Virus record (IMG/VR): IMGVR_UViG_3300049982_000330
Location: 1 to 56,357 of that record
Reading direction: 5' to 3' (one strand)
DNA from: a virus
Lineage: Duplodnaviria; Caudoviricetes
DNA length: 56,357 nucleotides
The number at the start of each line of letters is the position of its first letter. The first letter of the stretch is position 1. Of this stretch, positions 25,731-46,934 are shown piece after piece. Both the position numbers and the translations under genes were made by a program. Below the pieces are notes generated by a model. The model was given only the letters and a program-made list of their open reading frames with translations, was not told where the DNA came from and made no database searches.

Positions 25731-26828
25731 TCACAGTCCTTGAAGCTGAGCCACAGACCGCGCGAACACCGAGGCGAGCTCGGCGTCGGTCGGGTCCTCA
25801 GGGCCCAGAGGTGTGGAGAGCAGGGCCTTCAGGCGCTGAAGGTCGGCGTCGATCCAGTCCAGGAGCTCGGCCGAGCGGGGCGCCATGCCCTTGCCCTTGA
25901 GTGCGCGGAGAGCCACGACTTCCGCAGTTCGATCGACGAAGGCGGACACCGCGGCTAGGACCGCGTGTCCCTCTTCGGCGTACTTCAGCGAGCCGCCGAG
26001 GGCTTCTTTCAGCTCCGGCGGCTCAACATCGGCATCCCGCAGGTGCCCCGCGAGATGCTCGTAGACGCCCTTACGGTCGGCATCCGGAATGCCGCCCTTG
26101 GCGTCGTTCAGGCGGGCGATGCCCATCAGGCACGCCCGCACGTTCGCCGGCCCGCCCACGCCGTGGTGATGCGGGATCCGATACGACGACTTGGCCTCGG
26201 GGTCGCCGGCGCCGTCCACCCAGGCGTACACGGTGCGCAGCTCGGACGGCCGGGCGTCGTCCGCCAGGTCCGCGACCGTTTTGGCGCCGTCCCAGCTCCG
26301 CGAGGTGACCTCGCAGTCGTGCGGCGCGATCGGCCGGCCCAACCGCAGCGGCGCATCTGCCCCGGCCGACTTCGCGCTGAGGGTCCGGGTGTTCAGCCCA
26401 GCGCCACGAAGCACCGGAGAGACCTCGAAGACCTTCAGCTTGTTCAGGAAGCGGACCTTGCGCCCCTCGAAATCGCCGTACGACCACTCCACAGGGTCAT
26501 AGCCGTACGACCACTCCCCCAGCCCGGCCTTCGCCAGTTCCTGGACCGTCAGGAAGGCGTTCTTGCCGTGGTCGGTGTTCATGAGGAACTGGCCCTCGAA
26601 AACGGCCTCTTTCTGGGTCTGCCGAATCGTCCCGGTGCCCACCGGAAGCTCGCCGTCCCATGAGCTGTGACCGTAGGCGGAGATCAGCACCGGCGCGCCG
26701 TCCTCGAACGCGCCCTGCTGTGTCACATCCCCGTCGGAGTCGATCGCGTTGAAGGTCGAGAAGACCGCCTTGACCAGGCCCTTCGCCTCGTCCTTGATCT
26801 CGACTCGGAGGTTCTTGGTATCCATCAC
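25731..26828 (-). CDS. HK97-family prohead protease (helper)
   Basis: FSTFNAIDSDGD, GH, EWSYGY and FEVSPV motifs; between portal and capsid. Confidence 0.9.
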   Translation of the reverse strand: MMDTKNLRVEIKDEAKGLVKAVFSTFNAIDSDGDVTQQGAFEDGAPVLISAYGHSSWDGELPVGTGTIRQTQKEAVFEGQFLMNTDHGKNAFLTVQELAKAGLGEWSYGYDPVEWSYGDFEGRKVRFLNKLKVFEVSPVLRGAGLNTRTLSAKSAGADAPLRLGRPIAPHDCEVTSRSWDGAKTVADLADDARPSELRTVYAWVDGAGDPEAKSSYRIPHHHGVGGPANVRACLMGIARLNDAKGGIPDADRKGVYEHLAGHLRDADVEPPELKEALGGSLKYAEEGHAVLAAVSAFVDRTAEVVALRALKGKGMAPRSAELLDWIDADLQRLKALLSTPLGPEDPTDAELASVFARSVAQLQGL

Positions 26829-27251
26829 TGCTCCTTTGCCGGATCGGTAGTCGGCGTGGTCTGGCCGCCGGCGGGCGGCTGGTCTGGTGGAACGACTGGA
26901 ATGGCCTGCGCGGTAGTGCCAGGCGGCTGGAGCTGGACGGAAACAAGCCCGGTGTGCACCAGGAGGCTTTCGTCCTCGGCCGCGACGGCCGCCTTCGCCG
27001 AGTCGGAGGTGAAGCCCTCCCGGACCAGACCGGTGATCGTCCGGGCTCGGATCTCAAAGATCTCGGCGGCGTCCTTGCGGTCCTCCTGCAGGAACCGGAT
27101 GTCGCGGTCGTCGTACCAGAGCTCCGCGTTGTCCGGCACCGCGACCAGGGGCGCGAGTGCCCCGGCCGCGCCGCGCCACAAAGACCTCAGCGTGCCGTCC
27201 GCGAAGCGCCTGCGGGCCATCCCGTAGTTGCCCGCGTTCAGCGAGCTGCCG
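26825..27251 (-). pseudogene. Portal protein, 3' fragment (restorable by excision)
   Basis: GSSLNAGNYGMARRRFADGT continues the 5' fragment in frame; its stop is coupled to the protease start. Confidence 0.9.
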
Positions 27252-27275
27252 TCAAGTCCGCGCTAAGGCGAAGCT
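27230..27275. other. att junction at the portal 3' side (core CGG 27249-27251, minus strand)
   Basis: Portal coding begins abruptly after ...TAG CGC GGA CTT GAC GG. Confidence 0.8.
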
Positions 27276-27380
27276 CTACTTTCATCGATCTCCAGGCGGA
27301 CGGCCAGACGGCCGCGAGCCGTGTCCCGGCAGCGCGATGCCCTCGCCAACCGGTACTTGGCGAGGGCATCGGTCATTCTC

Positions 27381-27617
27381 TTACGGGTGGCGCGGCCTGT
27401 GGGGCTCTGCGTCGTCTACCAGGCGCGGCGGCCCGGCTGGGCCGAACAGCAGCCGCGCGAGCTTCCGGGCCTGCTCGGGAGTCGGCAGCGGGGCTTTCGC
27501 CGTTTCTCGCTCGATGTGCTCGGCCGTCTCGTCGTCCAGCTCGAACAGGCGCTGTATCTCCCGCATCTCAGGCGACAGCTCGGGGGACGGCGCGGCAGCC
27601 CTGCTGCTCTTGGTCAC
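27381..27617 (-). CDS. Small protein with RDF-like C-terminal motif
   Basis: HIERETAKAPLPTPEQARKLARLL resembles the 40404-40646 product. Confidence 0.6.
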   Translation of the reverse strand: MTKSSRAAAPSPELSPEMREIQRLFELDDETAEHIERETAKAPLPTPEQARKLARLLFGPAGPPRLVDDAEPHRPRHP

Positions 27618-27790
27618 TTCTTCTTCCCCTTCTCGGGCAACGCGGCGCCTTCCTCATCCACGTACCAGCGCCACATTTCGACCGTCACCTTGGACACGTC
27701 TCCATCGGGCGCTTGCTCGCGAACCTTCTTCACCAGTTCCTCGGATGCCCCCCGGATCCCAACGAGCTTGTGCCGGTGCTGGCTCGGCAT
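27614..27790 (-). CDS. 58-aa ribbon-helix-helix-like regulator (absent from the ORF track)
   Basis: MPSQHRHKLVGIRGASEELVKKVREQAPDGDVSKVTVEMWRWYVDEEGAALPEKGKKK; GAGGGAGG RBS; GTGA coupling. Confidence 0.7.
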   Translation of the reverse strand: MPSQHRHKLVGIRGASEELVKKVREQAPDGDVSKVTVEMWRWYVDEEGAALPEKGKKK

Positions 27791-27809
27791 CGGGCCGCCC
27801 TCCCTCTTA

Positions 27810-27855
27810 GGTGGTTGACCACCCGACAGTAACAGGTCTAAGGTGGTTAACCACC
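27810..27855. promoter_or_regulatory. Pair of palindromic operators in a divergent promoter region
   Basis: GGTGGTTGACCACC (27810) and GGTGGTTAACCACC (27842), 32 bp apart. Confidence 0.75.
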
Positions 27856-27949
27856 CCCTCTTTTGAGGGAGAGGCGCCTAACCGCAAGACGGCCCCCGCC
27901 AGCGATTGCAGCGCACGGCGAGGGCCTTGATCGGAAGCAGGTCCGACCC

Positions 27950-28297
27950 ATGTCCAACCCAATCACATGCCCGACTTGGTGCGAGCGCGAGCACCCCACC
28001 AGCTACCTCGCCCATGAGCGCTACGTCGCCGAGCTCAACGCCGACGGCGGCGAGCTCGTCATCGAGGTCACCGTGAATCAGCACGTGCAGCCCGGCCGTG
28101 TCGACGCGCCCGTCATGCGCCTGTTCGCCCACCAGGGCGGCGACCACGGAGAGACCACGATCCTGGACTTGGCCGCCGACCAGGCCGCCACCCTCGGCCG
28201 GATCATCGCGCTGCTGGCGTCGCACGGCCCGGGGCACCGGTTCGGCGTGGCCCTGACCGACGCCGCCGCGGTGATCCTCGCGGGCGGTGGGCGGTGA
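27950..28297 (+). CDS. CPxWC-motif protein (DUF6907-like)
   Basis: TCPTWCEREH...H and DLAADQAATLG pattern. Confidence 0.65.
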   Translation: MSNPITCPTWCEREHPTSYLAHERYVAELNADGGELVIEVTVNQHVQPGRVDAPVMRLFAHQGGDHGETTILDLAADQAATLGRIIALLASHGPGHRFGVALTDAAAVILAGGGR

Positions 28298-28536
28298 AGG
28301 CCGAGCGCCGACCGGCCGCCACGGTCACGATCAGCGTCGAGGACCTCGACCGGCTGACGGCGGCAGCTACCACGCTGTTCGGCATCGCCAGCGAGCTCCG
28401 CATCCGCTGGGAGAACGCCGAGATCCAGGCCGGGGGCGTCCCGGACGGCATCAATCCCGCATGGGTCGCGCAGAAGCGCGCCGCCGACGGCGACCAGCTG
28501 GCCGCCCGCCGGGCCTCGAAGGGTGGCGTGCGATGA
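28294..28536 (+). CDS. Hypothetical protein
   Basis: Stop/start coupling on both sides. Confidence 0.6.
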   Translation: MKAERRPAATVTISVEDLDRLTAAATTLFGIASELRIRWENAEIQAGGVPDGINPAWVAQKRAADGDQLAARRASKGGVR

Positions 28537-28697
28537 CCACGGCCGAAGAGATCGCGTTCGTCGACGCCATGACGGCCGACGAGCTGCGCCAGGCGCTGAT
28601 GCACCTGGCCGGGTACTCACCCGACGGGTTCGCCGACGCCATCGCCAAGGTCCAGCGTGACCGCGCCTGGCGTGCCGAGATCGAGGTGTCGAAGTGA
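28533..28697 (+). CDS. Small hypothetical protein
   Basis: ATGA coupling; MTTAEEIAFVDAM... Confidence 0.55.
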   Translation: MTTAEEIAFVDAMTADELRQALMHLAGYSPDGFADAIAKVQRDRAWRAEIEVSK

Positions 28698-29464
28698 AGG
28701 GGGCCCGTGCGATCCGCTGGTCGACGGCGGCCGTCGTGGTGGCGCTCGCGGCCGTCGCCGCCGTGGTGTCCTACCGGCACGCCCTGGAGGTGATCCGCGC
28801 CCACGGCGAGAGCGGGTTCACCGCCTACCTGGTGCCGCTCACGGTCGACGGCCTGATCTACGCGTCATCCATGGTGCTGCTCGACGCCTCCCGGCGCGGC
28901 GTCCGTGTGCCGCCTCTGGCGCGGTGGACGCTCGCTCTCGGCATCGTGGCCACCCTCGCCGCCAACGTGGCTCACGGGCTCGCTCACGGCGTCGTCGGGG
29001 CGGTCGTGGCCGCGTGGCCCGCCGCCGCGTTGGTGCTGTCGTATGAACTGCTGATGGCGCTGATCCGGGGTGCGGCCGTACGGGCGACTGTCCAGAATTG
29101 GACAGTCGAGGCGGTAGCCGCACCCGTGGCCCGGGTGCCGGTGAGTCGCGAGGTGTACGACTGGGCAGCCGAGCGGGACCTGTTCGACTCCGTCGCGGCC
29201 GATGCACCCGGCGCTGTACCCGCCGACGGGCCGCCCGCCGTGGACGTACCCGGCGATGCACCCGAGGCCGACCCCGATCCCGAGTGCGCACCCGGCGACG
29301 TACCCGAGCGCGATCCGCTGTACCCGGAGGCCGTTCGCTTGTACCTCGGCGACGTCGCGAGCGGCGCCGTCCCGCCGCTGCGAGCCATCAAGGCCGACCT
29401 CGGTATAGGCCAAACCAAGGCGCAACAGGTGCAGGGCTATCTACGGACGCTCGCCGCGAGCTGA
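28694..29464 (+). CDS. DUF2637-like membrane protein with C-terminal HTH
   Basis: AAVVSYRH, PLTVDGLI, TLAANVAH, VAAWPAAAL; C-terminal PPLRAIKADLGIGQTKAQQV. Confidence 0.8.
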   Translation: MKGARAIRWSTAAVVVALAAVAAVVSYRHALEVIRAHGESGFTAYLVPLTVDGLIYASSMVLLDASRRGVRVPPLARWTLALGIVATLAANVAHGLAHGVVGAVVAAWPAAALVLSYELLMALIRGAAVRATVQNWTVEAVAAPVARVPVSREVYDWAAERDLFDSVAADAPGAVPADGPPAVDVPGDAPEADPDPECAPGDVPERDPLYPEAVRLYLGDVASGAVPPLRAIKADLGIGQTKAQQVQGYLRTLAAS

Positions 29465-29473
29465 ACGAGTCGA

Positions 29474-29511
29474 GCAGAATGCCCCGCCGGTCGACCGGCG
29501 GGGCATTCTGC
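29474..29511. terminator. Perfect 38-bp palindrome / terminator
   Basis: GCAGAATGCCCCGCCGGTCGACCGGCGGGGCATTCTGC. Confidence 0.75.
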
Positions 29512-29539
29512 GTTCCGGGGTAAGGAGTCTTCAAGGCTC

Positions 29540-29594
29540 TTGACAGCACTCCGGAGGAGGCTGACGATGCGCTGGTCCGAGAAATCTCCGGAAA
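29540..29594 (+). promoter_or_regulatory. Putative promoter and operator
   Basis: TTGACA-N17-GACGAT followed by AGAAATCTCCGGAAA, a motif repeated at 31195. Confidence 0.55.
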
Positions 29595-29616
29595 CACTCA
29601 GGAGAGGGAAAGATCG

Positions 29617-29832
29617 ATGCGCCTACAGTTCCTTGGCAAGGAAACCGACGGCGGTAACTCCCCTACGCTGTGGGACACCGACGGCGACGAGTACGTGATC
29701 CAGGGCTTTACGGTGACCGACGCCGAGGCCCTCGCGGACATCGGCGCCGTTCCTGATGGGGAGCTGATAATCCGCATCCCCAAGCGCCTGATGGACCACC
29801 TGCCGAAGGAGACACATGGACCTGCTGACTAA
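29617..29832 (+). CDS. Small protein of the DUF6879/XRE cassette
   Basis: MRLQFLGK...SPTLW...YVIQG pattern; RBS. Confidence 0.8.
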   Translation: MRLQFLGKETDGGNSPTLWDTDGDEYVIQGFTVTDAEALADIGAVPDGELIIRIPKRLMDHLPKETHGPAD

Positions 29833-30343
29833 GGAGGAATTCCAGCAGAGATTCCACGGGTCGAAGCGGGCCTTCCACCTCGAACTACGGGACGCCTACA
29901 ACGTCACCGCCGAGGATGAGCCGTTCCGGAAGTGGCAGGCCGGCGAGTACGACGACCACGCGTGGCGGCGCCCGTGGCAGGCATTCATTCGCCAGGTGAC
30001 AGGCGCCGGCTGCGCGATGCAGCGGGTCAGGGTCGTCACCGTGCCCCATGCGCGCTACACGCGATGGCTGCTCGACATCGCCGGCGACAACGTTGAGGCC
30101 GGGGAGGACATCCGATACCTGCCACGACACCTCGCCGCGGACATCGACTTCCCCCCGGAGGACTGCTGGTTGTTCGATGACGACCAGCTGGTGCTCAGCG
30201 TGTTCCCGGGCGACGGCCGGGCCGGTGCGTTCGTCGCCGAGACCGATCCCGACCTGATACGCAGGTACCTGATCGCCCGCGATCTGGTGTGGGAGCGCGC
30301 GATCCCGCACGCCGTTTATGTTCACGCGCAGCGCCGCGCCTGA
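29816..30343 (+). CDS. DUF6879-like protein
   Basis: AFHLELRDAY, RVRVV, NVEAGEDIRYLPR and DCWLFDD motifs. Confidence 0.85.
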   Translation: MDLLTKEEFQQRFHGSKRAFHLELRDAYNVTAEDEPFRKWQAGEYDDHAWRRPWQAFIRQVTGAGCAMQRVRVVTVPHARYTRWLLDIAGDNVEAGEDIRYLPRHLAADIDFPPEDCWLFDDDQLVLSVFPGDGRAGAFVAETDPDLIRRYLIARDLVWERAIPHAVYVHAQRRA

Positions 30344-30358
30344 TTCGCCGCTTCGACC

Positions 30359-31195
30359 GTGTCACAGCCGACCGACCAGGCCCGCCAGGCGCTAGGTTCC
30401 CGCCTCCGTGAGATGCGCCAGGACGCGCGGCTCACGGGCCGGGAGCTCGCCGCGCGAGCCGGTTGGCGGCCCCCGAAGGTGTCCAAGCTGGAGCACGGGC
30501 AGCAGAACGCCAGCGAGGAGGACATCCGTACCTGGTGCCAGGTGTGCGGCGCGCGGGACCAGATCCCTGAGCTGATCGCCACGGTGCGCGCGATCGAAGC
30601 GCAGTACATGGAATGGCGACGACAGATGCGGGGAGGTCAACGCCGCGTCCAGAGCGTGCTCCGCGCCGAGGATCTCTCCACCCGCCTGTATCGGATCTTC
30701 GAGCCGTTCCACATCCCCGGCTTCCTCCAGACCCGCGATTACACCCGGGTCATCATGGCGCGCAGTGCCCATTTCTACGAGGCACCGAACGACCTGGAAG
30801 CCGCTGTAGCGGCCCGTCTGGGGCGTCAGACCATTCTTCGAATGGGTGACCGCCGGTTCCACATCGTCGTGGCCGAGCAGGCCCTGTACACCCAAGTGGG
30901 CGGCCCTGAGGTGATGCGCGGCCAGCTCGCCCACCTCCTGGACGAGATGGCCGCGCTGCCCCGGCTGCGTCTCGGCGTCGTTCCCCGCGCCGCCGACTAC
31001 GAGCTCGGCCCCCACGCGGGTTACTGGATCTTCGACGCGCGGCTGGTCATGACGGAGACGGTCACGGCCGTTCTGAACGTCACCCAGCCGCGAGAGGTCG
31101 CCATGTATGAGCGGCACTTCGACGGAATAGCGGGCCTCGCGGTGTACGGCCAGGCGGCCGCTGCCCGAATTACGGCAGCGAGCGAAGCTCTCTAA
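30359..31195 (+). CDS. XRE HTH plus DUF5753-type regulator
   Basis: LREMRQDARLTGRELA...VSKLEHG; IPGFLQT.DY; EQAL. Confidence 0.9.
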   Translation: MSQPTDQARQALGSRLREMRQDARLTGRELAARAGWRPPKVSKLEHGQQNASEEDIRTWCQVCGARDQIPELIATVRAIEAQYMEWRRQMRGGQRRVQSVLRAEDLSTRLYRIFEPFHIPGFLQTRDYTRVIMARSAHFYEAPNDLEAAVAARLGRQTILRMGDRRFHIVVAEQALYTQVGGPEVMRGQLAHLLDEMAALPRLRLGVVPRAADYELGPHAGYWIFDARLVMTETVTAVLNVTQPREVAMYERHFDGIAGLAVYGQAAAARITAASEAL

Positions 31196-31321
31196 GAAAT
31201 CTCAGGAAATCTCGTTGAGTGTGACGCGTGTGCCTGCCGACGATCGGGGGGACGAAAGGCGGGCCCGCCTGGCGCTGATGACGACCAGACGAGCCCTTGA
31301 TCGGACGCGGAGGTCCGACCC

Positions 31322-31531
31322 ATGGCACACCTTAAAGCCACCTCAGTGGACGCGCCCCCAGGATGGCGGGTGTTCCGAAGCGATAAGGGCCGCTTCTGGG
31401 CCACCCGCGAGGAGCCCTACCCCGAGCCCGAGCAAACCGCGTGGCGGACCGTGGACGCCGACGACTTGACCACGCTGTGCCGGACCATCGCCGAGCAGGA
31501 GAGCCGAGCCGAGCTGGGAGCGTCATCATGA
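31322..31531 (+). CDS. Small hypothetical protein
   Basis: GGAGG RBS; GWRVFRSDKGRFWATR...RTVDADD. Confidence 0.7.
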   Translation: MAHLKATSVDAPPGWRVFRSDKGRFWATREEPYPEPEQTAWRTVDADDLTTLCRTIAEQESRAELGASS

Positions 31532-31809
31532 GCGAGTCCGATCTCCACGTCGTGGACACCGACCAGATCAGGGAACAGAAGATCGCCGCCCTGGCCCAGA
31601 CCTACCCGGCGTGGCAGATCCGGTTCGTCGGATCCACCATCGCGGGCCCCATGGGCTGGTGGGCCATGCGGCACGCTCCGCTGACCGAGGCCCAGCGCGC
31701 GGCCGGCCTGGTGCCGTCCATCGCCCGCGGCGACATCGTGTCCCTGGTGATGGAACTCGACGTCCAGGATCAGATCGCCCATCGGACCGGCTACGCGGCC
31801 CGCCCATGA
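31528..31809 (+). CDS. Hypothetical protein
   Basis: ATGA coupling; YPAWQI...WWAMR. Confidence 0.65.
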   Translation: MSESDLHVVDTDQIREQKIAALAQTYPAWQIRFVGSTIAGPMGWWAMRHAPLTEAQRAAGLVPSIARGDIVSLVMELDVQDQIAHRTGYAARP

Positions 31810-32159
31810 GCAGGCCCGGCGGTCGTCCCGCTTCCCAGGTGGAACCCGCCGGGCCGCCGCCGTGCCCAGCGTGGTGCGACTTCCAGCACTCCGAGACTGA
31901 GCCGAGCTGGCGCTGGTACTGGCGCACACATCTCGGCATGGGTCGTACGGTGCCGCTGACGGCGATGCCTTCGGTGGCCAGCCACATCCCGATGCTGATG
32001 TACGACCTCATCCAGCAGCCCGACGGCGAGCCGATGATCCGGATGCGCCGCGACGGCCGTCCGCTGGTGCGGCTCACCTCCGGCGAGGCTCAGCGCCTCG
32101 CCATGGGCCTGGTCGCGCTCGTCGACCAGGCCCGCGCGGAGGCCGAGGGCAGGGCATGA
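31806..32159 (+). CDS. Second CPxWC-motif protein
   Basis: CPAWCDFQH...H; LTSGEAQRLA. Confidence 0.6.
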   Translation: MSRPGGRPASQVEPAGPPPCPAWCDFQHSETEPSWRWYWRTHLGMGRTVPLTAMPSVASHIPMLMYDLIQQPDGEPMIRMRRDGRPLVRLTSGEAQRLAMGLVALVDQARAEAEGRA

Positions 32160-32265
32160 GCGCGCATGCCAGCACCCCGGTTCAAGGGACCTGCTCGTCT
32201 CGTGGCGGCCGAACGCTCGGCCCGCATGGACGGCCCCGGGCGCGGCCGGGCCGCCATGGTCGCGG

Positions 32266-32574
32266 TCATGGCGGGGGCGGGCCGTGGTGCTCGGTGAAGA
32301 AGCGGAGCTCCTCCCACGCCTCCGGGTCCAGCGCGGCGGCCTCGTTGAGCACCTCAGCGAGCAGGCGGCGGGGCAGGCCCGACTCTTCCCACACCGCCCC
32401 GCACGAGCACCGTACGTAGCTCGGATCGTCGCCTGTCTCGTCGAGCAGCACCGACACGGTGAGGATGTGCCGCTCACCGCAGGCCGGACAGCCGATGGGG
32501 CCGTTCAGCCCGATGGCCCCGTTCACCAGGTGCAGGGTGACCTGGGTGATCTGGTGTTCTGCGTGCCCGCTCAC
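32266..32574 (-). CDS. Zinc-ribbon protein coupled to the satellite TMP
   Basis: CPACG...CSCG; GTGA overlap. Confidence 0.65.
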   Translation of the reverse strand: MSGHAEHQITQVTLHLVNGAIGLNGPIGCPACGERHILTVSVLLDETGDDPSYVRCSCGAVWEESGLPRRLLAEVLNEAAALDPEAWEELRFFTEHHGPPPP

Positions 32575-35500
32575 CTCGAACCTCGTTCGACTTGGCGCAG
32601 CCCCTCGCGGATCTGCATGAGGATCTCCCGCCCCGCCACGGTGTGGTTCTCGAAGTTGAGCTTGGCCCCGTTGATGTTGAGCACGAAGTCTCCCTGAATG
32701 GTCGGGCCGCCTCCACGGCCGCTACTTGACGAGGTGCTCACGCTGGCGCCGGACACACTCAACGTCGACCCGCCGGAGGTCGCGAGCGCCGGCCCGCCCC
32801 CGCCGGCGAACCCGAACGTCGGTTGTATGTCCATGGTGGCCATGTCGGCCATGCCGCGAACGGCGTCGAGCACGTGCCCGTACCCGCCTTGGATGCCGCT
32901 GGCCAGGCCCATGGGGATGAACTTGCCGATCGCGGCGAACACCTTGGACGGCGAGGCGATGCCGAGGATCTTCTTGGCCCAGTCGGGCAGCAGGGCGCCG
33001 AACAGGTTCCCGATCTGCTGCTTGAACCAGTTCCACATGCCGACGATGCCGTTCCACAGCCCCGTGATCATGTTGTGGCCAAGCGTGCCGAACATGCCGG
33101 CGAGGTCGCCGATCGCGCCGAGGATCAACCCGGGCAAGCCCTTGAGCCAGGTCACCAGGTCGTTGAACTTGCTGATGGCCCAGTCCTTGGCCTTGCCGAA
33201 CCACTCGGCGAACATGGCGGGCAGGCCCGAGATCCACTTGACGATCCCGTTGACCAGGTCGGGAATGATGCTGTGGCCGATCAACGTGTCGTACAACCAG
33301 GTGAACCAGCCGACAATGGTTTTGATCTTGTCGGCGATGTCGGCGGCGAATGTCGTGATGGCCGGGATGACCACCCCAAGGATCACGCCGACGAGCTTCA
33401 CGAACATGATTTGGACCGGCGCCCACAGCCTGATCAACTCGGCGACCATCGGCAGCATCGGCGTCATCGCGGTGATGAGCTGGACGGCGGCGCCTGCCAG
33501 CTGCACCACGACCGGCGCCAACACCTTGATCCACTCGGCCATGACCGGCAGCAGCGCCTTCACGAGCTCACCCACCACCGGCAGGATCGGCGTGAGCGCT
33601 GTGATCAGCGACAGGAACGCGCCGATCAAGCCAGGCAGCAAGGGGGCGAGCTCCTGCAGATACTTCACCAGCGCCAACCCGATGGTTTGCGCGAGCTCCG
33701 ACAGCACCGGCAGCAGCGGCACGACGGCCTGCACCAGCAGCGAGAGCCCGGTCACGAAGTTCGTCGCGATCAATCCGGCGATCTGCGCGATGATCGGGAT
33801 CAGCGGGGTGATAGCCGGGACCAGCCCGGACACCAGTTGGGTGATCAGTGCGGCGATCTGCGGGAGCAACGGTGCGAGCGCCGGAACCAGGGCGTTGATC
33901 AACGTCGCGGCCAAGCCGAAGATCAGCGGCACGATCGGCGACAACGCGACCACGGCCTGCGCAAACGCCCCGACGAGCAGCTGAATCGACGGCAGAATCG
34001 CGATGATCCCCGACGCCAGGCTCGTGGCGATCAGCAGCACCAGCTGGCCGAGCACCGGCAGCAGCGGGGCGAACGCGGGCACCAGCTGGCCGATGACCGT
34101 TGCCGCCAGCCCGATGATCAGCGGGATGATCGGGGCGAGGGCGGTCAGCATCGAGGCGAACCCGCCGACGAGGACCTGAATCGGGCCCAACATCGCCTGC
34201 ATCCCGGCGGCCAGGCTGGAGGCGATCAGCGTGGCCAGCTGGGAGATCACGGGCAGCAGCGGGGACAGGGACTGCAGGATCTCGCCGAAGACGCGGACCA
34301 TCAGCTGGATCGACGGCAGCATCGCCTGTACGCCTGCAGCAAGCGTGGTGGCGATCAAGGCCGCGAGCTGGCCGACCACCGGTAGCAGAGGCGCGATGGC
34401 TGCGAGGATCCCGCCGAGCGCTGCTCCGATCGGGGCGAGCGCCGGCGCGAGCGACGCGAAACCCGTAGCCACCGCGCCGATGAACGCCTGCAAGCCGGGC
34501 AGGATCGCTGCGATGGCGGGACCGATGGCGGCGATCAGGGGCTGCACGGACGCGAAAGCGGCGCCGATGGCCTGACCGAGGGGAAGCATCGCGGGCGCCA
34601 GGGCGGCGACCGCCTGGCCGATGCCGGCGAACACCGCGATCATCCCCGGGCCGATCGCCGCGACGGCGGGACCGAGCGCGGTGATCGCCGTGGCGAGCAC
34701 CGGGCCGACCATTTGAGCCAGCTGTGCGATGACGGGGGCGAGCTGGGCGATGACGCCCACAACGGCGGTGATCACCGGCAGGAACGATTTGGCGATGGCG
34801 CTCAGCGCGGTGAACACCGCGACCAGCGTTGACTGGCCCTGCGCTGATTTGAGGAACTGGTTCATCCCGTCGAGCAGCTGGCCGATGACGCCGAGTGCGC
34901 TCGCGCCAGAGGCCTGCATGGCGGTGAAGACCGACCGCACGATGCCGCCGACGTCGCCGACGATCGAGCCGAGCTGCTTGAAGACCAGCAGGGCGTTGTC
35001 CATCCATTGCAACGCCTGACCGCTCGCCGCGGCGTTGTACATGAACAGGCCGAACCGCTGCGCCACGGCGGCGATCCCGGGCGCCAGGGCGGCCAGCCAT
35101 CCGGCGCCGACCACACCGAGGTCTCTGAAGCCGTTGAGCAGGGGCGTCAGGGCGGGGATGAAGGCGGTCACCGCGTCATGCAGCGAGGTGAACACGCTGC
35201 GGATCGCCCAGATCGACTCCGATGACCGGGCGAATTCGAGGACCTTCAGCGCGGCCTGGCCGAACTGGCCGGCCACGCTCTCCACCCCGTCGGTCAGGGC
35301 GTTGAGGACGGGCAGCAGCGACCACATCTGGCCGACCAGCGGCCCGAACAGGGCATCCTGAGCGGCGAACTTGAGGCCCTGGAAAGCGGGCGCCATTTGG
35401 AAGAGCTCGTACGCCACCTGGCCGGCGGATGCGCCCAGCCCGGCGGCGGCCGTCATGAACTTGTCGAAATCGCCGGAGATGGCGGCCGCGAAAGCGTCCC

Positions 35501-35975
35501 CGACGCCGCTCAATGCGAGCTTCAGGGTGCCCAGCGCGGCGGCGCCGAGCAGTATCCCTCCCGGCAGAGCGGCGAGGATCCCCACAGCGGGCGCCAGCGC
35601 GGACACCAGGCCGATCGCACCTGAGCCGGCCGTGGCCATCGCAGCCGACAGGACGGCCATCTTCGCCGCGGCGGTGACCAGCGAGACGCCCACACTGACC
35701 AGCGAGCCCACGAAGCTCGCGACGTGGGAGGTTGCCTGGGAGACAGCCGTACTCAGGAGGGCGAACACGGCGCCGATGCCGCTGGAGCCACTGCCGAGAC
35801 GGAGGAAGCCCGCGTTCATCGAGCTCGAGATGCCGTCGAGGCTGCGGAAGCTGCGCTCGGTCCTGTCCGCCTGCCGCGCGACCTTCTCCAGGTCTCGGTT
35901 CACCTTGCCAATCCCGCGATCGGTGTCAGCCATCACCCCAAGGCGGATCATGAGGTTCTTGATTGAGTTCGCCAT
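32571..35975 (-). CDS. Tape measure protein (satellite copy, 1134 aa)
   Basis: True start ATG 35975 with AGAAAGGG RBS; collinear with the helper TMP. Confidence 0.93.
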   Translation of the reverse strand: MANSIKNLMIRLGVMADTDRGIGKVNRDLEKVARQADRTERSFRSLDGISSSMNAGFLRLGSGSSGIGAVFALLSTAVSQATSHVASFVGSLVSVGVSLVTAAAKMAVLSAAMATAGSGAIGLVSALAPAVGILAALPGGILLGAAALGTLKLALSGVGDAFAAAISGDFDKFMTAAAGLGASAGQVAYELFQMAPAFQGLKFAAQDALFGPLVGQMWSLLPVLNALTDGVESVAGQFGQAALKVLEFARSSESIWAIRSVFTSLHDAVTAFIPALTPLLNGFRDLGVVGAGWLAALAPGIAAVAQRFGLFMYNAAASGQALQWMDNALLVFKQLGSIVGDVGGIVRSVFTAMQASGASALGVIGQLLDGMNQFLKSAQGQSTLVAVFTALSAIAKSFLPVITAVVGVIAQLAPVIAQLAQMVGPVLATAITALGPAVAAIGPGMIAVFAGIGQAVAALAPAMLPLGQAIGAAFASVQPLIAAIGPAIAAILPGLQAFIGAVATGFASLAPALAPIGAALGGILAAIAPLLPVVGQLAALIATTLAAGVQAMLPSIQLMVRVFGEILQSLSPLLPVISQLATLIASSLAAGMQAMLGPIQVLVGGFASMLTALAPIIPLIIGLAATVIGQLVPAFAPLLPVLGQLVLLIATSLASGIIAILPSIQLLVGAFAQAVVALSPIVPLIFGLAATLINALVPALAPLLPQIAALITQLVSGLVPAITPLIPIIAQIAGLIATNFVTGLSLLVQAVVPLLPVLSELAQTIGLALVKYLQELAPLLPGLIGAFLSLITALTPILPVVGELVKALLPVMAEWIKVLAPVVVQLAGAAVQLITAMTPMLPMVAELIRLWAPVQIMFVKLVGVILGVVIPAITTFAADIADKIKTIVGWFTWLYDTLIGHSIIPDLVNGIVKWISGLPAMFAEWFGKAKDWAISKFNDLVTWLKGLPGLILGAIGDLAGMFGTLGHNMITGLWNGIVGMWNWFKQQIGNLFGALLPDWAKKILGIASPSKVFAAIGKFIPMGLASGIQGGYGHVLDAVRGMADMATMDIQPTFGFAGGGGPALATSGGSTLSVSGASVSTSSSSGRGGGPTIQGDFVLNINGAKLNFENHTVAGREILMQIREGLRQVERGSR
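33775..35642. repeat. About 1.9-kb direct repeat of 10074-11941 (offset 23,701)
   Basis: Identical shadow ORFs at constant offset; scattered substitutions mostly toward the high-coordinate end. Confidence 0.9.
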
Positions 35976-35977
35976 CG

Positions 35978-36223
35978 TCACCCTTTCTCTGGTTCTCGTC
36001 GGGCCACCTGCCGGCTCGCTCGGGCGCACTCCTGCGAGCACGTGCGCCGACGGCGGCCACCCGACCAGGTGGCCTCGAAGGTCTGGCCGCACACCGAGCA
36101 CGTCGCCTCGTGCCGCGCGCGACGGCACGGCCGGCAGACCCGCAACCCGGCGGGCAGCGAGGTGCTGGTCGACCAGAGCAGGACGCCGCACATCGCGCAC
36201 GGGACATCGGGCCGCCGAGCCAT
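35978..36223 (-). CDS. Multi-CxxC zinc-finger protein
   Basis: CAMC, CRPC, CSVC, CSQEC; GGAGG RBS before ATG 36223. Confidence 0.65.
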   Translation of the reverse strand: MARRPDVPCAMCGVLLWSTSTSLPAGLRVCRPCRRARHEATCSVCGQTFEATWSGGRRRRTCSQECARASRQVARREPEKG

Positions 36224-36301
36224 CCCGTCACCTCCCTGTCGCCGACTACGCCGGGTGACCAGCACGCGGTCACTCTGTGCCATCTCTTCGCCCTCACTCT
36301 G

Positions 36302-36436
36302 AGTGATGATCTTGAGGCCGATTACTCTGTGAAGTGGGGAGGGAAAAGGGCGCTAAGGGCGCGGGTCCCCCGTGATCGTTGATCTACGTCGCGAGGGTGC
36401 CCCCTCCGGCGCTATGACCTGCGAAAACGTCGCCGC
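36302..36436. repeat. Satellite copy of the putative cos/packaging site
   Basis: 132/135 identical to 46227-46361, same orientation, non-coding. Confidence 0.85.
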
Positions 36437-36964
36437 ATTGTCGCTGAGGGTCGATTGCATGCTGTTTATATGTTTGATCTTCGTCACTGAGCGTGTTTGG
36501 CGCAGTGTCACGTAACGTCATCACTTACGTCATCGCTTACGTGTTGATCTTCACGTTGTTTGCGTTGTGTGATCGGTGACTGGCTGGCCACCGCGCCATC
36601 CGCACCGCTCGGCCTCGGCTCGCGCGCATCAGCACGACGTGACGCTGTCGCGCCAGGTATGCACAGATGATCACGACTGCGAGACGCGTGAGCAGCGAGC
36701 GTCGAGCGGCGACTGTGGAAGCACGATCGCTGTGACGTACATCGTCGGCTGATGCATCGAGCTGCGTGTGATCGCTGTGTGCGAGCCATGGTGGCTGTGG
36801 TGGATAGGTGGCAGAACCGATGCTGATCAGCTCGGCGGGCGCGGTGTTCGAGCGTGACCGGCAGCGCCTGTGCCGCGTGCGGCTCGGCCGCCAGGAGGAC
36901 AGGGCCCACCGAGTGTGCCGGGCCCCCAAAGGTCGCCACCGCTCATTGGCGAATGGGCCCCGGG

Positions 36965-37495
36965 TCATGCCGTCTCCCGTGCGGCGGCCCGACGCTCGAG
37001 GTGGCACCGCTCCTCAATCCGGATCAGGGTCCGGCGTGCTGCCCCGAGGCGCTCGCCCGCCGCGCTCCGCGCCCTGTAGAGCCGACTCTCCGCAGCTTCC
37101 AGGACGTGACGCCGTGCCTGTGTGGGTTCCCTCGCGGGGTAGTCCGCCGGGGAGAGCATTGCGCCCCTCGGCCCCGTGTTCGCCCCCGCGGCCGTGGCCT
37201 CGATCAGCGCCCGTTGGTGCGCCATATCGGCCATGGTGTAGCTCGCGAGCGCCTCGTCGACGGCCTGCTGCGCCTCGGCTATCTGCGGCGCGAACCGGTC
37301 GATCACCTCCTGCTCGGCCTCGCCGATCGGGTCCGGCGCCGGACCGAGCAGCTTGCTCGGGTCGATGACCAACCCGTCGCGCCAGCAGAACCAGCCCGAG
37401 GGCATCGGGCGGCACCGCTTGGCCCCATATCCGACCGGCCTCCCGCAGCGATGGCACCGCTCGCTCGCGGCCTTGTTCTCGGCTGACAGCCTCAC
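36965..37495 (-). CDS. Hypothetical protein (Cys motif plus helical region)
   Basis: GTGA coupling to the upstream gene. Confidence 0.55.
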   Translation of the reverse strand: MRLSAENKAASERCHRCGRPVGYGAKRCRPMPSGWFCWRDGLVIDPSKLLGPAPDPIGEAEQEVIDRFAPQIAEAQQAVDEALASYTMADMAHQRALIEATAAGANTGPRGAMLSPADYPAREPTQARRHVLEAAESRLYRARSAAGERLGAARRTLIRIEERCHLERRAAARETA

Positions 37496-38496
37496 CTCGT
37501 CGCCTCCAGCCAGTAGGTGGCGCGCGCCATTTCCTCGTAGGCGCGCGCGGCATCCTCGTCGCCGCCGGCCATGTGCCTGACCTCGTGCCCGGTGATCGCG
37601 TCCAGCTCAGCCGCCTGGCACAGCGCGTCGGCGTTCAACCAGACTTCACCCGCCCAGGACACCGCCTTGCCGAGCAGCTGGTCACTCGGCCAGCCGAAGC
37701 CCGGCCGGGCGGACTCGCCGTACATCTCCAGGTAGTCGCGTTCGCCGTCGGTCTCGCTGCGGAACCAGCGCAGCCGAGGCCGCGGGGCGACCTTCAACCG
37801 CTCGCAGTGCTTGGTAAGCGCCGAGTCGACGATGACGCGTTTCCAGGCCGGAACCTCATCCGCCGCGAGTTCGACGTACCAGCTCGACACGTGCCGCTCC
37901 GCTTCCATCAGGACCGTGCGCGCGTGCTCGCGTTCCTCAAGATCCCGAAGGTTCCGCTTCACGATTTCGCAGGTGTTGACGACGGCGAGCCGCTCCATCC
38001 ACGCCCGGGTCTCGGCGTCGAGTTCGCCGGGCGGCCTGTTGTGCTTGACGGCGAGGGTCCGCGTGCCCACGCCAGCCCCGCGAAGGACTGGGCTGACCTC
38101 GAACACCTGTACCTCTTCGATGAAGCGCACCCGCTGGCCGGCGAACTCGCCGAACGACTCCTTGGTCACGTTGTAGCCGTAGCTCCACTCCTGGAGGCCG
38201 CCGAGCTGCTTGACGACGGTGAAGGTGTCGCGACCGGCCATGGTGTCGAGGAAGAACCGGCCTTCCAGGATCGCCTCATTGGCGGTCTGCCGGATGGTGC
38301 CCAGCCCGACCGGAAGCTCGCCGTCCCAGGTCCTGTGGCCGTAGCTGGAAATCACGACGGGCGCACCGTCGGCGAACGCTCCCGGCCGTGTCACATCCCG
38401 ATCGGAGTCGATCGCGTTGAACGTCGAGAAGATGGCCCGCACTTCGCCCTTGGACTCGTCCTTGATCTCCAGCAGGAGACTCTTGGTGTCCACCAT
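37492..38496 (-). CDS. Prohead protease paralog fused to an HEXXH domain
   Basis: First ~150 aa align with the helper protease; C-terminal ITGHEVRHMAG. Confidence 0.85.
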   Translation of the reverse strand: MVDTKSLLLEIKDESKGEVRAIFSTFNAIDSDRDVTRPGAFADGAPVVISSYGHRTWDGELPVGLGTIRQTANEAILEGRFFLDTMAGRDTFTVVKQLGGLQEWSYGYNVTKESFGEFAGQRVRFIEEVQVFEVSPVLRGAGVGTRTLAVKHNRPPGELDAETRAWMERLAVVNTCEIVKRNLRDLEEREHARTVLMEAERHVSSWYVELAADEVPAWKRVIVDSALTKHCERLKVAPRPRLRWFRSETDGERDYLEMYGESARPGFGWPSDQLLGKAVSWAGEVWLNADALCQAAELDAITGHEVRHMAGGDEDAARAYEEMARATYWLEATR

Positions 38497-38886
38497 TCAC
38501 CCCTCCCTTCTGCGCGCGGCCTCGGCCGCGACGGCGTCGCGCTCGAAGACCCACCGGCCCCGCTCCAGGCGTCCGCCGAGTTCGGCGGCGAGCTGGCGCA
38601 CGCGGCGCGCGGTGAGTCCGAGCAGCGCCGCGACCTGATCGGCGCTCAGAGGCGAGGATCGCCCGATTTCCGCGATCGGCGTTTCCGAGCTTCCGTTCGG
38701 CAGGTCAGGGCGTTTCCGCGCCCGTCCGGCTCGCTCCAGGTCACCGATCGCGGCCAGCAGCTCGGCACGCGCGTGCGGCGCCACCCGATCGAAGTAGCCC
38801 TTCCGCGCCAGGTCGCGAAGGGCGACGCCGGCGAGCTGCGCGATCTGCCCGGACAGGACCGCGGCGTCCTGGACGTAGGCCACCAA
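38497..38886 (-). CDS. HTH DNA-binding protein (excisionase/AlpA-like C-terminus)
   Basis: LSADQVAALLGLTARRVRQLA...GRWVF. Confidence 0.75.
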   Translation of the reverse strand: MVAYVQDAAVLSGQIAQLAGVALRDLARKGYFDRVAPHARAELLAAIGDLERAGRARKRPDLPNGSSETPIAEIGRSSPLSADQVAALLGLTARRVRQLAAELGGRLERGRWVFERDAVAAEAARRREG

Positions 38887-38887
38887 C

Positions 38888-39055
38888 TCACCTGCCGTCC
38901 GCGGCTCGGACGGGCCAGCGCTCGCTAAAACAAAGGACGTGCATCCAGTCGCCTCGGGCGCCGATGCGGCAGATCCGTTCCCCGATGTGGATCGCGCGAC
39001 GACACAGCGGACAACGGCTCTCCCTGCGCGCCTTCCGCGCGTGGGTGGCGATCAT
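38888..39055 (-). CDS. Small zinc-finger protein
   Basis: CPLC...IHIGERI...WMHVLC. Confidence 0.6.
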   Translation of the reverse strand: MIATHARKARRESRCPLCRRAIHIGERICRIGARGDWMHVLCFSERWPVRAADGR

Positions 39056-39888
39056 GCCGACCTCGCCATGGCCCGGCACTGCGGGCACTGCGGCAGACCG
39101 GTGTCCGGGCGCGCCTGGTCGCCGCCGGGTGTGCCGTGCTCGCACGGCGGCATCTGACCGATCGAGGCCAACCACACGCCGATGTCGGACCGGCCGCGCG
39201 CCGTACGTACCCGCACGAGCACCGGGGCCAGGTCCCCGTGATGGGCCATGGTGCGCAGGAGGCCGGGAAGCGATCGGACCTTGTTCTCAGCCTCGATCGT
39301 CTTGATGACGCTCTCTGCCTCCTCCTCGGTGGCGCCCGTGGCGGCCGTCACGATCCGTACGGCTCGCGCCCGCGCGGATGAGGAGTTCTTGAGGATCTCT
39401 GAGGAGATGGGTCCCCCGCTTGGGGGAGCTTCAGCACTTGAAGCTCTCCCGCTTGGGGGAGCTTCGGGACCAGGCGGGGGAGCTTCAGCACTCGAAGGTC
39501 TCCCGGATGGGGGAGCTTCAAGCTCTCCCGCTTGGGGGAGCTTCAGCGCCGGGCATTCGCCGGGCCTCGGAATGTAGAACTCCATGGCATGGCCGTTGCA
39601 GGCGAAGAGCATGCGCCCCCGGTCGTCAGTGACCGCCTGGCCCTGCTTGTCGCGGACCGGCACGCGGAGCTCGATGCCGTTCGCTCCGAGTTTGCCCAGC
39701 ACCTTGCCGAGCTGCTTGAGGTCTGCAAAGCCCGTCCGGCGGATCACCGTCGCGATCACCGCTCCGCCGTACGCGCGGCGAGTCCGCTCGTTGGCCTGGT
39801 CGGCGATCTCCAGGGCCACCAGCCGCTCGCCGGAGGACAGGCCAGGCGGCAGATGCTCGGCGAGCCAGCGCCGCAGCTCGTAACCCAT
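39052..39888 (-). CDS. Putative replication initiator
   Basis: LSSGERLVALEIADQAN wHTH-like N-terminus, internal iterons, C-terminal CEH...CPQC; start ATG 39888. Confidence 0.7.
   Translation of the reverse strand: MGYELRRWLAEHLPPGLSSGERLVALEIADQANERTRRAYGGAVIATVIRRTGFADLKQLGKVLGKLGANGIELRVPVRDKQGQAVTDDRGRMLFACNGHAMEFYIPRPGECPALKLPQAGELEAPPSGRPSSAEAPPPGPEAPPSGRASSAEAPPSGGPISSEILKNSSSARARAVRIVTAATGATEEEAESVIKTIEAENKVRSLPGLLRTMAHHGDLAPVLVRVRTARGRSDIGVWLASIGQMPPCEHGTPGGDQARPDTGLPQCPQCRAMARSA
39422..39544. repeat. Five GGGGGAGCTTC direct repeats (putative ori iterons)
   Basis: Copies at 39422, 39455, 39476, 39509 and 39534. Confidence 0.8.
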
Positions 39889-40169
39889 CAGGTCTCGCCG
39901 GCTTCCTGCTCTTCGCGCTCCCGGCGAAGCGCCTCGGCACTGATCTCCACCAGGGCCCGGCGCCGCGGCGAGGTGTTCATCTGGTCGCCGTGCATCGCGG
40001 GCGGCAGTCGGCCGTTCCACATATCCGGCGTACTGAAGAACAGCGGCGCCTGCGTGAGCCGGGCGCGCAGGTCGACGTACGCGAGCACCCGGGCCCGGCG
40101 CGCGGCGCACTCAGCTCGCTCATCGGCAGCGGCCTTCCTCAGCAGCGCTGCCCACTCCTGGCCCTTCAC
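39888..40169 (-). CDS. Hypothetical protein
   Basis: Coupled within the operon. Confidence 0.6.
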   Translation of the reverse strand: MKGQEWAALLRKAAADERAECAARRARVLAYVDLRARLTQAPLFFSTPDMWNGRLPPAMHGDQMNTSPRRRALVEISAEALRREREEQEAGET

Positions 40170-40414
40170 GGCGTCACGCCCGCGAGCGTGCCGCGCTGCC
40201 GGGCGATCTGACCCAGCTCCTCGAGTTGGGTCAAGCGGTCAAGGACGCGTTGCCGATCAGCTGGCCGCAACGACCGCAGCGCGGCGGCAGCAGACCGCCC
40301 ACAGGAGTTTGCCCGCGCTCTGTCGGACCGGCGCTGTACGCTGACACCATCGTCGTTAACGCGTTTCGAGGCCGCTCCTGCCCGGGGGCGGCCTTCGGCG
40401 TTCTCAGGCCACAT
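40166..40414 (-). CDS. Hypothetical protein
   Basis: GGAGG RBS; coupled to the next gene. Confidence 0.45.
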   Translation of the reverse strand: MWPENAEGRPRAGAASKRVNDDGVSVQRRSDRARANSCGRSAAAALRSLRPADRQRVLDRLTQLEELGQIARQRGTLAGVTP

Positions 40415-40646
40415 GGCGCACCTCCCCGCCCGCGTCCTGGTGGCCGAGGAGCACCTGAGCGAGGCGCACGCGTTGCTCGGGAGTCGGACTCGGTTCTGAA
40501 CCGATGAGCCGCTGGATGTAGTCCTCTGCGGCTAGGACCTTGAGGTCCCGGCGCTGGGTTTCAACCAGCTCAAGCCGATCCGGATGATGGCGCCTGGTGG
40601 CTGCGTGCTGTGCCCGTAAGCGGCGGCGCTCAGGAGAAAGAGACAT
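40404..40646 (-). CDS. Putative recombination directionality factor (phiRv1 Rv1584c-like)
   Basis: RRDLKVLAAEDYIQRLIGSEPSPTPEQRVRLAQVLL matches my recollection of the phiRv1 RDF pattern; downstream of the serine integrase. Confidence 0.65.
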   Translation of the reverse strand: MSLSPERRRLRAQHAATRRHHPDRLELVETQRRDLKVLAAEDYIQRLIGSEPSPTPEQRVRLAQVLLGHQDAGGEVRHVA

Positions 40647-40795
40647 GGATCCCCCAGAAGGCAAATGCCTTGTAAGGGGCTCCTCATACGTGGCCGTCTC
40701 GGGAGCCGGTTTCGCGTCGCCGGGTAGACCAGGCCCCACGTAGGCCCCGCGACACGCCCTGCCGTGCACAGGACAGTAGCAAGTCACCCAGGCGT

Positions 40796-41095
40796 TCACA
40801 TGCCATATCGGCTAGGAGGCTGGAGAGATTCAGTCGGACCGTAACTCTCGTCCAGATTGGAATGATCAACACGAGAAAGCCCCGGACCTTGGTCCAGGGC
40901 TTCGTCTCTGCACTGAGCACAATGGCACTGCGGCGGAGGATCGACGGGCAGGCCGGCGGCTATCTTCTGCCGTCGCCGTTCCAGCGCCACGGCGAGCATG
41001 CGCACCGTCCGATGCACCCTCGCCGTCATGCCAGCGGAGTTTTCCTCGGGATCGTGGGTCTCAGACATGGCTGGAAATATCCTTTCCTTGCGCAT
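40796..41095 (-). CDS. Hypothetical protein
   Basis: ORF with CHCAQC; weak support. Confidence 0.35.
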   Translation of the reverse strand: MRKERIFPAMSETHDPEENSAGMTARVHRTVRMLAVALERRRQKIAAGLPVDPPPQCHCAQCRDEALDQGPGLSRVDHSNLDESYGPTESLQPPSRYGM

Positions 41096-41098
41096 AGC

Positions 41099-41131
41099 AA
41101 AGAGCCGCGAGGGATATGCTCGCGGCTCTTT
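41099..41131 (-). terminator. Terminator downstream of the integrase
   Basis: 13-bp stem AAAGAGCCGCGAG/CTCGCGGCTCTTT. Confidence 0.75.
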
Positions 41132-41154
41132 CGCTGGGTTTAGGTGCAGCGCGC

Positions 41155-43865: not shown

Positions 43866-44101
43866 CAGCCCGGGTCAGCCTCGGCGAGCTCGTCACGCCG
43901 GAACGCGGCGACCTGCTCGACACCGCCGCCAAAGAAGAAGACCTCGACATCCGGGAACCGCTCCTTGAGCATCGGCGACACCTGCTCGCGGAGCCTGACG
44001 AACTGCTCGACGGTCACATCGGTACCGAGCCGGAGGACCAGCAGGTCCCCCGGCCGCACGACGACGGCCTGCTCGATCGCGGGCAGCTCCAGCTCAGCCA
44101 T
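43865..44101 (-). CDS. Hypothetical protein
   Basis: VRPGDLLVL motif; coupled. Confidence 0.65.
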   Translation of the reverse strand: MAELELPAIEQAVVVRPGDLLVLRLGTDVTVEQFVRLREQVSPMLKERFPDVEVFFFGGGVEQVAAFRRDELAEADPG

Positions 44102-44330
44102 CCTCGCCGTCCTTCGCCGTGCTGGTCCGCCCGGCCTCGCGCCAGCCGATCACCAGTGCCGTCCGCAGCATCACCAGCCCCAGCCAGACCTTCCGCAGCG
44201 TCCAGCCGAGGGCGTAAGGCACCGCCAGGACCAGAGTCCAGAGCAGGCGGGCCGCCGCGAACAGCGCCTTACGCACGTCCACCTGGCGGGCCTCGGCCGA
44301 GATCTCCTCGACCGGAATGGTCAGCGCCAT
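44094..44330 (-). CDS. Small membrane protein between terL and portal
   Basis: GGAG RBS; hydrophobic segment. Confidence 0.65.
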   Translation of the reverse strand: MALTIPVEEISAEARQVDVRKALFAAARLLWTLVLAVPYALGWTLRKVWLGLVMLRTALVIGWREAGRTSTAKDGEDG

Positions 44331-44340
44331 CTGCTCTCCC

Positions 44341-46184: not shown

Positions 46185-46226
46185 TCCGACCCCCTCACGC
46201 AGCGTGATTCCAGGATGGTCACTCCA

Positions 46227-46361: not shown

Positions 46362-46442
46362 GTGATCGCCGGGAGCCGATTACGCACCGTTCGCGTGCTG
46401 ATCTTCGTCACGATATGCAACGAGTGTGATCGTTGCATTCAG

Positions 46443-46880: not shown

Positions 46881-46934
46881 CAGTGCATGCCCCCTCGAAC
46901 TACCAGCCCGGCATGAACTGGCCCCATCCGGTAA

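Follow-up and report, generated by a model that had tools for sequence, protein, structure and literature searches.

A 15.6-kb phage-like element interrupts a portal gene in an actinobacterial prophage, and the integrase gene of this element may possess a promoter that overlaps the attachment site attP and that would be complete only in the excised form, in which the two ends of the element are joined. We assign this reading a probability of about 0.5. The stretch of DNA analysed here, called the window below, measures 56,357 bp, has a G+C content of 68%, and is a provirus record of IMG/VR that comes from soil. The prophage, referred to below as the helper, flanks the element with its late operon, which lies on the minus strand and comprises an HNH endonuclease (46935–47219), the terminase, the portal, the prohead protease, the capsid, and the tape measure (8843–12238). 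At the right end of the element lies the gene of a large serine integrase of 564 aa (41155–42849, minus strand), and the features that characterize a circle-junction promoter are found before it: the -35-like and -10-like hexamers come from opposite ends of the element, take up a working spacing once these ends are joined, and face the integrase gene.

The element spans 15,631 bp (27249/52 to 42879/82), and the trinucleotide CCG, located at 27249–27251 in the left junction (attL) and at 42880–42882 in the right junction (attR), is the only sequence common to both. The 5’ part of the portal gene (42883–43865, minus strand) was recognized by positions 35 to 241 of the PF04860 profile and by alignment with the portal of Rhodococcus phage Shagrat; the 3’ part lies at 26825–27248 on the same strand. 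The gene is broken within the codons for the motif SEGLAGSSLN, between SEGLAG and SSLN, and the truncated ORF ends within the element arm. In-silico excision at the CCG core brings the 3’ part back into frame and yields a single open frame of 1410 nt, whose 469-aa product can be aligned to the Shagrat portal over 435 aa at 51% identity, colinearly and ungapped at the junction motif. Among 80 related portals from IMG/VR, 78 are colinear over the insertion site and two carry in-frame, intein-like inserts, while integrase matches are found in none of the 80. Since excision restores a colinear portal and nearly all the related portals are colinear at this site, the crossover that the initial annotation had placed at the core is well founded on sequence grounds. 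The symmetry of attB (TTCAGCGA/TCGCTGAA) was also considered as a guide to the crossover and was rejected, as its axis falls outside the shared core. Exact searches in IMG/VR gave 0 matches to a second copy of either element arm.

Assembled contigs from the Logan collection bridge both junctions without differences, at a depth of about 24: record 1 covers 26800–28023, across attL, and record 7 covers 36407–43300, across attR. None of the 15 joints listed, out of 50, for the Logan contigs of runs X1 to X3 corresponds to attP or attB, a result to be read with the fact that contigs cannot reveal rare forms. One run, the soil metagenome X1, is listed with the locus, and there are no RNA runs among those listed with it. 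The two portals with in-frame inserts (L228, 4819–5891, and L234, 3896–5121) hold about 1.1–1.2 kb of additional sequence that ends with HN followed by S or T, as inteins do, near the conserved SEGL..SS motif that constitutes attB in the window.

Read on the minus strand, the joined ends present TTGACG, a spacer of 18 nt, CACAAT, 7 nt, and the integrase ATG (42849–42847), as the initial annotation had described. The -35-like TTGACG (27250–27255) takes its TTGA from the left end and its CG from the core, agrees with TTGACA in five of six positions, and stands at -35 spacing to the -10-like CACAAT (42857–42862) in the joined form only. At the integrated junction the same position reads TCGCCG, and the two states differ there by two bases only (TTGA versus TCGC). 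The TTAG and CTAA arms were also located correctly, each 11 nt from the CGG core. Because the integrase ATG is only 31 nt from the core, a normal two-part promoter for this gene is present only with the ends joined. When we scanned the 235 nt of the in-silico attP for an xAxxxT -10 together with at least four of six matches in the -35, the TTGACG-18-CACAAT arrangement was the sole promoter-like match, and the same criterion gave none in attR. Random junctions drawn from the window are expected to show a hexamer with at least five of six matches to TTGACA at a spacer of 16–19 nt in 0.8% of cases, and sites of equal quality (9/12) are found only twice on both strands of 27000–46999. The -10 itself is weak, with four of six matches and a C in its first position.

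The leaderless start that had been proposed for the integrase holds as far as its geometry goes, with the -10 7 nt before the ATG, no Shine-Dalgarno sequence, and a -10 that recurs in the family, whereas the activity of the promoter stays a prediction. We regard it as quite probable that CACAAT acts as the -10 of a leaderless integrase transcript. That attP would be a better integrase promoter than attR is a proposition for which we see roughly even odds. The left-end arm between the hairpin described below and the core (27252–27335, minus strand), which forms the distal arm of attP, has no similarity to the upstream regions of related integrases.

The surroundings of the junction differ between the two states. 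A perfect hairpin with a 14-bp stem (27336–27370, minus strand), a likely terminator or insulator, follows the small minus-strand genes of the left end; the 96-nt stretch that contains it has a minimum free energy of -51 kcal/mol (z -3.55), and none of 200 shuffled sequences was as stable. According to this folding prediction, the hairpin would be expected to stop the transcription of the left-end genes before attP. Once the ends are joined, the reading frame terminating at the integrase start is open for 45 nt only and lacks a start codon, so that the integrase is not translationally coupled to an upstream ORF in the circle. With the hairpin on one side and no coupling ORF on the other, the excised form would have to initiate integrase expression within about 115 nt, and the junction motif is the only promoter candidate in that interval between the hairpin and the gene.

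In the integrated state, the helper terminase gene (44341–46122; phrog_9, E 2.5e-74) lies upstream of the truncated portal and the integrase, all three are co-oriented on the minus strand, and the stop codon that ends the truncated portal ORF shares bases with the integrase start codon in an ATGA (42846–42849, minus strand). No terminator-like site was found on the minus strand from 46122 to 42849. Because of this co-orientation and of the lack of a terminator-like site between terminase and integrase, helper late transcription should read into the integrase and the other minus-strand genes of the element, and this read-through is probably the first mode of control that the initial annotation presupposed when it called the junction promoter a second one.

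Our proposed mechanism is thus as follows. In the integrated element, portal sequence would occupy the -35 position and the integrase would be expressed mainly by read-through of the helper late operon, along the path of terminase, truncated portal, ATGA overlap, and integrase. Upon excision, the left end would supply TTGACG at a spacing of 18 nt and thereby give the free element its own leaderless integrase promoter. The integrase made in this form would be needed for integration into a new portal gene, and once bound to attP it could cover the junction promoter. The reintegration role that had been attributed to integrase expressed from the circle may be understood in this sense.

The layout of the junction was compared with that of related integrase loci, for which upstream DNA was available from relatives more distant than the closest integrases (62–78% identity). 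From 160 loci, we kept 80 non-duplicate ones in which the N-terminal 160 residues matched from within query residue 14, an in-frame start was present near the aligned start, and the upstream sequence extended to 45 nt or more. An xAxxxT motif ending 5–8 nt before the start occurs in 43 of these 80 loci, against a null of 9.2% obtained from other positions in the same loci, and an SD-like motif occurs in 34; the loci are phylogenetically non-independent, and such counts overstate their independence. Under the same filter with 60 nt upstream, again 43 loci have the -10, and 12 of them carry TTGnnn (or at least five of six matches to TTGACA) at a spacer of 16–19 nt, with a null of 3.9%. Fourteen of these 43 loci reach an N-terminal identity of 47% or more, and ten of the fourteen have TTGnnn 17–18 nt upstream of the -10, against the same null of 3.9%. 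Given the -10 in 43 of 80 loci and the -35 in 10 of the 14 closest of these, the normal design of this clade is, as predicted from its upstream regions, a leaderless promoter of the form TTGnnn, 17–18 nt, -10, 6–7 nt, ATG. The closest relative with available DNA (L002; 51% identity), left out of the 80 loci by the length rule, has TAGAGT, 7 nt, and ATG, and a TTG hexamer at the -35 position is absent from its 42 nt of upstream sequence.

Where the crossover of a relative could be placed, its position relative to the promoter can be compared with that in the window. Seven elements from different genomes (L006, L082, L083, L085, L088, L094, and L101) occupy one site in a VOC (glyoxalase-like) gene that lies on the opposite strand. 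In six of the seven, a TTG(C/T)nn hexamer starts within the element, 4–5 nt from its edge, and a correctly spaced -10 accompanies it in five, a layout in which the putative promoter touches the crossover and is not split by it. The window junction aligns with these junctions: host GGGCTCG is followed by 4–5 nt and then by TTGCAC (42874–42879, minus strand), the positional counterpart of the relatives’ -35 and the same hexamer as the -35 of L006 and L085, which in the window lies 11 nt from the -10 instead of 17–18 nt. Since TTGCAC is too close to the -10, the working -35 slot would be shifted 7 nt upstream, to a position across the core, and TTGACG from the left end falls exactly into this displaced slot. 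We read the combination of a displaced TTGCAC and a TTGACG in its place as the strongest argument for the split promoter that the initial annotation had suggested.

Other arrangements occur among the relatives as well. In L087, the -10 lies a few nucleotides inside the element and the -35 falls in a block of 32 bp whose sequence does not differ between attP and attB, and the promoter would therefore be the same in both states. In L101, a Shine-Dalgarno sequence is present and the junction -35 is absent. The insertion of L100 is in a DUF222 gene, where the family match stops 44 nt short of the ATG, and the TTGCCA of L100 probably belongs to the element side; a DUF222 fragment (L168) was considered as the far end of this element and was rejected as a paralogue because it covers the same motif. 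Since the junctions that could be placed have their -35 either on the side of the element or in a block common to attP and attB, the split promoter is, judging from these alignments, not a family trait.

These comparisons also bear on the best of the alternatives, which is that CACAAT drives the same low, and perhaps autoregulated, expression from attP and attR, with TTGACG being either a coincidence or a part of the distal arm that the integrase recognizes. Actinobacterial promoters often function without a -35, and the integrated junction may be equally active. This explanation is consistent with several of our observations: the conserved part of the family layout is the geometry of the -10, most of the loci with a -10 lack the TTGnnn hexamer, the relatives do not split their promoters, the difference between the two states is confined to two bases, and the TTGA on the side of the core could have been kept for integrase binding rather than for transcription. 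It accounts less well for the conservation of the -35 in the closest clade, for the low expectation of such a match at a random junction, and for the poor -10 of the window, which is more likely to need a -35. Taking its versions together, we consider a state-independent promoter possible and clearly less probable than one that is completed by the joining of the ends.

The gene content of the element ties it to its helper. On the minus strand, downstream of the integrase, there are small ORFs, a weak HTH_17 protein, a homologue of the head-maturation protease (37492–38496; PF04586, phrog_80) with an N-terminal part that is 70% identical to the helper protease, and a tape-measure gene encoding 1209 aa (32571–36200). 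Between 32833 and 35702, the latter has 87% DNA identity to the helper gene at 9090–12001, a likeness that suggests a recent exchange between element and helper; within these regions, runs of 100% identity extend over about 1.7 kb. The plus strand encodes a repressor-like DNA-binding protein (30359–31195) and DUF6879, DUF2637, and DUF6907 proteins. No capsid, portal, or terminase genes were found within the element, and 29 element ORFs used as queries against Pfam and PHROGs gave no matches to primase or AlpA families, the only related hit being the weak HTH_17. The ORFs of the element are intact and their third-position GC is high. Just after the integrase, a 99-aa ORF (40796–41095) has 62% identity over 48 aa to a protein adjoining the L002 integrase, and, the integrase aside, it alone among the element proteins has a match there; we consider it a candidate recombination directionality factor.

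Element and helper also share a non-coding block. The helper copy (46219–46361, minus strand) lies upstream of the terminase and contains the promoter-like TTCACA-16-GATCAT (46258–46231), and the element copy (36294–36436, minus strand) lies upstream of the tape-measure gene with its promoter-like site at 36333–36306; a stretch of 118 nt differs between the copies by one mismatch. A scan of both strands of 27000–46999 found promoter-like sites only within these two copies. The block may serve both units as a late promoter or control region, or may be a packaging site of the cos type. No Rfam families were detected in the window, the shared block included, and the 143-aa and 145-aa ORFs upstream of its two copies show no similarity to each other.

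The wiring and gene content just described leave room for a second alternative, in which integrase comes from the helper late operon alone, by read-through and ATGA coupling, and the motifs near the integrase ATG are no promoter at all; the integrase of the free element would then depend on some other signal or not be made, as might be the case for a decaying embedded remnant. Co-orientation, the ATGA overlap, and the uninterrupted path from terminase to integrase fit this explanation, as does an element without capsid, portal, and terminase genes, and the same wiring has been proposed for helper-embedded satellites (HE-PICIs; PMC10111431). Intact ORFs with high third-position GC argue against a remnant, however, and the circle offers no other start for the integrase. 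Moreover, a leaderless -10 is kept even in relatives whose target gene lies on the opposite strand, where read-through is impossible. We therefore find it doubtful, and less probable than a state-independent promoter, that the late operon is the only source of integrase. That the insertion or its ends are an assembly chimera, formed through the tape-measure repeat of two phage-like units, is suggested by the 100%-identical runs at 33.7–35.5 kb and 10.0–11.8 kb and the approximately doubled contig depth there, but is very improbable, since independent Logan contigs bridge both junctions without differences and since a repeat misjoin would not place both junctions at one codon-precise, portal-restoring site.

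Returning to a promoter assembled at attP, the setting in which it would operate resembles that of the HE-PICIs (Tommasini, Mageeney & Williams 2023, PMC10111431). These satellites reside inside a helper late gene and are co-oriented with it, with portal sites among those occupied; they carry no replacement sequence, so that the late gene stays broken until excision; they have taken up late genes of the helper; and they share with the helper, near the terminase genes, a short non-coding block that is almost identical in both. The HE-PICIs are characterized by one clade of tyrosine integrases, by AlpA, and by a primase, and they come from Enterobacteriaceae and other Gram-negative bacteria. The element studied here shares with them the split, co-oriented late gene, the captured late genes, and the shared non-coding block, but it differs in having a serine integrase with a LacI-type HTH, in the lack of detected primase and AlpA genes, and in its GC-rich, actinobacterial soil setting. 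In terms of the features that define the HE-PICIs, the late-gene split, the captured genes, and the shared block are present, and the tyrosine integrase, alpA, and primase are absent. The element is thus, to judge by its sequence, one that works like an HE-PICI without being a member by descent, and it appears to be a serine-integrase analogue of these Gram-negative satellites.

A broader and more tentative proposal, which we hold to be, as a whole, less likely than not, is that the element represents a serine-integrase counterpart of the helper-embedded satellites, resident in an actinobacterial portal gene, with a two-state switch wired in cis. When the element is embedded, the helper late operon would drive the integrase and the whole 10.6-kb minus-strand operon, and induction of the helper would lead to excision and repair of the portal gene. 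When the element is free, the hybrid leaderless attP promoter would provide integrase for the capture of the next portal gene, and the LacI-type HTH of the integrase, or its binding to attP, may switch the junction promoter off.

State-dependent expression of this kind has precedents. For ICEKp1, ICEclc (with its promoter Pcirc), and ICEEc1, PMC13023037 reports that the integrase promoter is switched between states: in the integrated form, the integrase gene is read from the promoter of the target gene, which lies next to it in the same orientation, and after excision its transcription relies on sequence at the element's far end. The integrated state of our element conforms to this scheme in that the integrase lies co-oriented behind the operon of the target gene. 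The three ICEs have tyrosine integrases, reside at tRNA genes, and use a complete far-end promoter with a long, structured 5’ UTR; in contrast, the promoter predicted here is a hybrid, with its -35 from one end and its -10 from the other, and has no leader.

The division of the two hexamers between the ends of the element recalls, in turn, systems of other types. Circles of the IS911 type likewise combine a -35 from one end with a -10 from the other, but there the junction is formed through transposition by a DDE transposase, while here it arises by site-specific recombination. The clostridial mobilisable transposon Tn4451 reportedly creates a promoter for its large serine recombinase by the joining of its ends, and the activity of this promoter is said to have been demonstrated. 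The likeness to Tn4451 consists in the large serine recombinase gene at one end and in a promoter made by end joining; the differences are that we deal with a phage-like element in an actinobacterial prophage, that its start is predicted to be leaderless and its promoter is predicted from sequence, and that the integrated copy is also wired to the operon of a helper phage.

A state-dependent promoter of the Tn4451 or ICEclc kind in a serine-integrase, helper-embedded satellite is therefore plausible, with chances that we judge to be balanced, and it would belong to a known kind, that of serine-recombinase circle promoters (Tn4451) and of integrase promoter switching (ICEclc, ICEKp1, ICEEc1), without a new principle. 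What would be new is a hybrid leaderless promoter on the attP of a phage-type serine integrase, an ancestral -35 that appears to have been displaced, and, as the setting, a helper-embedded satellite with a serine integrase. Our literature search returned no paper on a serine-integrase satellite in a prophage portal gene with its helper, nor on a leaderless attP promoter of a serine integrase. Junction-assembled and state-dependent recombinase promoters have been shown for Tn4451 and for ICEs with tyrosine integrases; if correct, the proposal would add to them the case of a phage-type serine integrase whose start is leaderless, and it would show how an element embedded in a helper gene tells the inside of the helper from the free state. 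The family data lead to a testable rule, namely that in this group of actinobacterial serine integrases the integrase promoter lies on or beside the attP crossover, from which it follows that integrase binding and integrase transcription should compete. The element that carries this junction is notable in itself as a counterpart of the helper-embedded satellites that has a serine integrase and is found outside the Gram-negative bacteria.

The assignment of the integrase to the large serine integrases is based on its N-terminal catalytic resolvase domain and its recombinase and zinc ribbon domains (Pfam Resolvase, Recombinase, and Zn_ribbon_recom; PF00239, PF07508, and PF13408, all past the cut-off; phrog_95) and on the 3-bp core CCG, and its R-I-S motif is nearly invariant in the alignment of the family (A1). 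Residues 502–543 form a C-terminal LacI-type HTH (PF00356, 33.2 bits versus a cut-off of 27 bits). All 18 relatives at 43–78% identity are metagenomic, and the LacI HTH is on record for 11 of them. On the plus strand, the arm hexamer and the core read TGCAACCG, which we take to resemble a half operator of the LacI family consensus. Searches by peptide patterns found no integrase relatives in IMG/VR, the matches in the phage collection reach at most 28% identity, and no close relative of the element with both of its ends was found.

Among the relatives with serine integrases, two are elements of about 9 kb in VOC-family genes (L101, 9995–18800, and L087, 9992–19280). The common core of L101 measures 8 bp, its arms bear an inverted AACAACAC motif, it includes a capsid-like gene, and at its far end there is a second copy of the 3’ part of the target gene, 74% identical. 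In the family of the Actinophytocola MAG, 400 other genomes, with three candidates scored per genome, held no integrase match at E ≤ 1e-60. The related integrase of the MAG itself (L100, 9396–9991) lies directly after the truncated DUF222 gene, and the phiRv1 attachment site of M. tuberculosis lies in a gene of the same DUF222 family. Three contigs of this MAG end inside such integrase genes.
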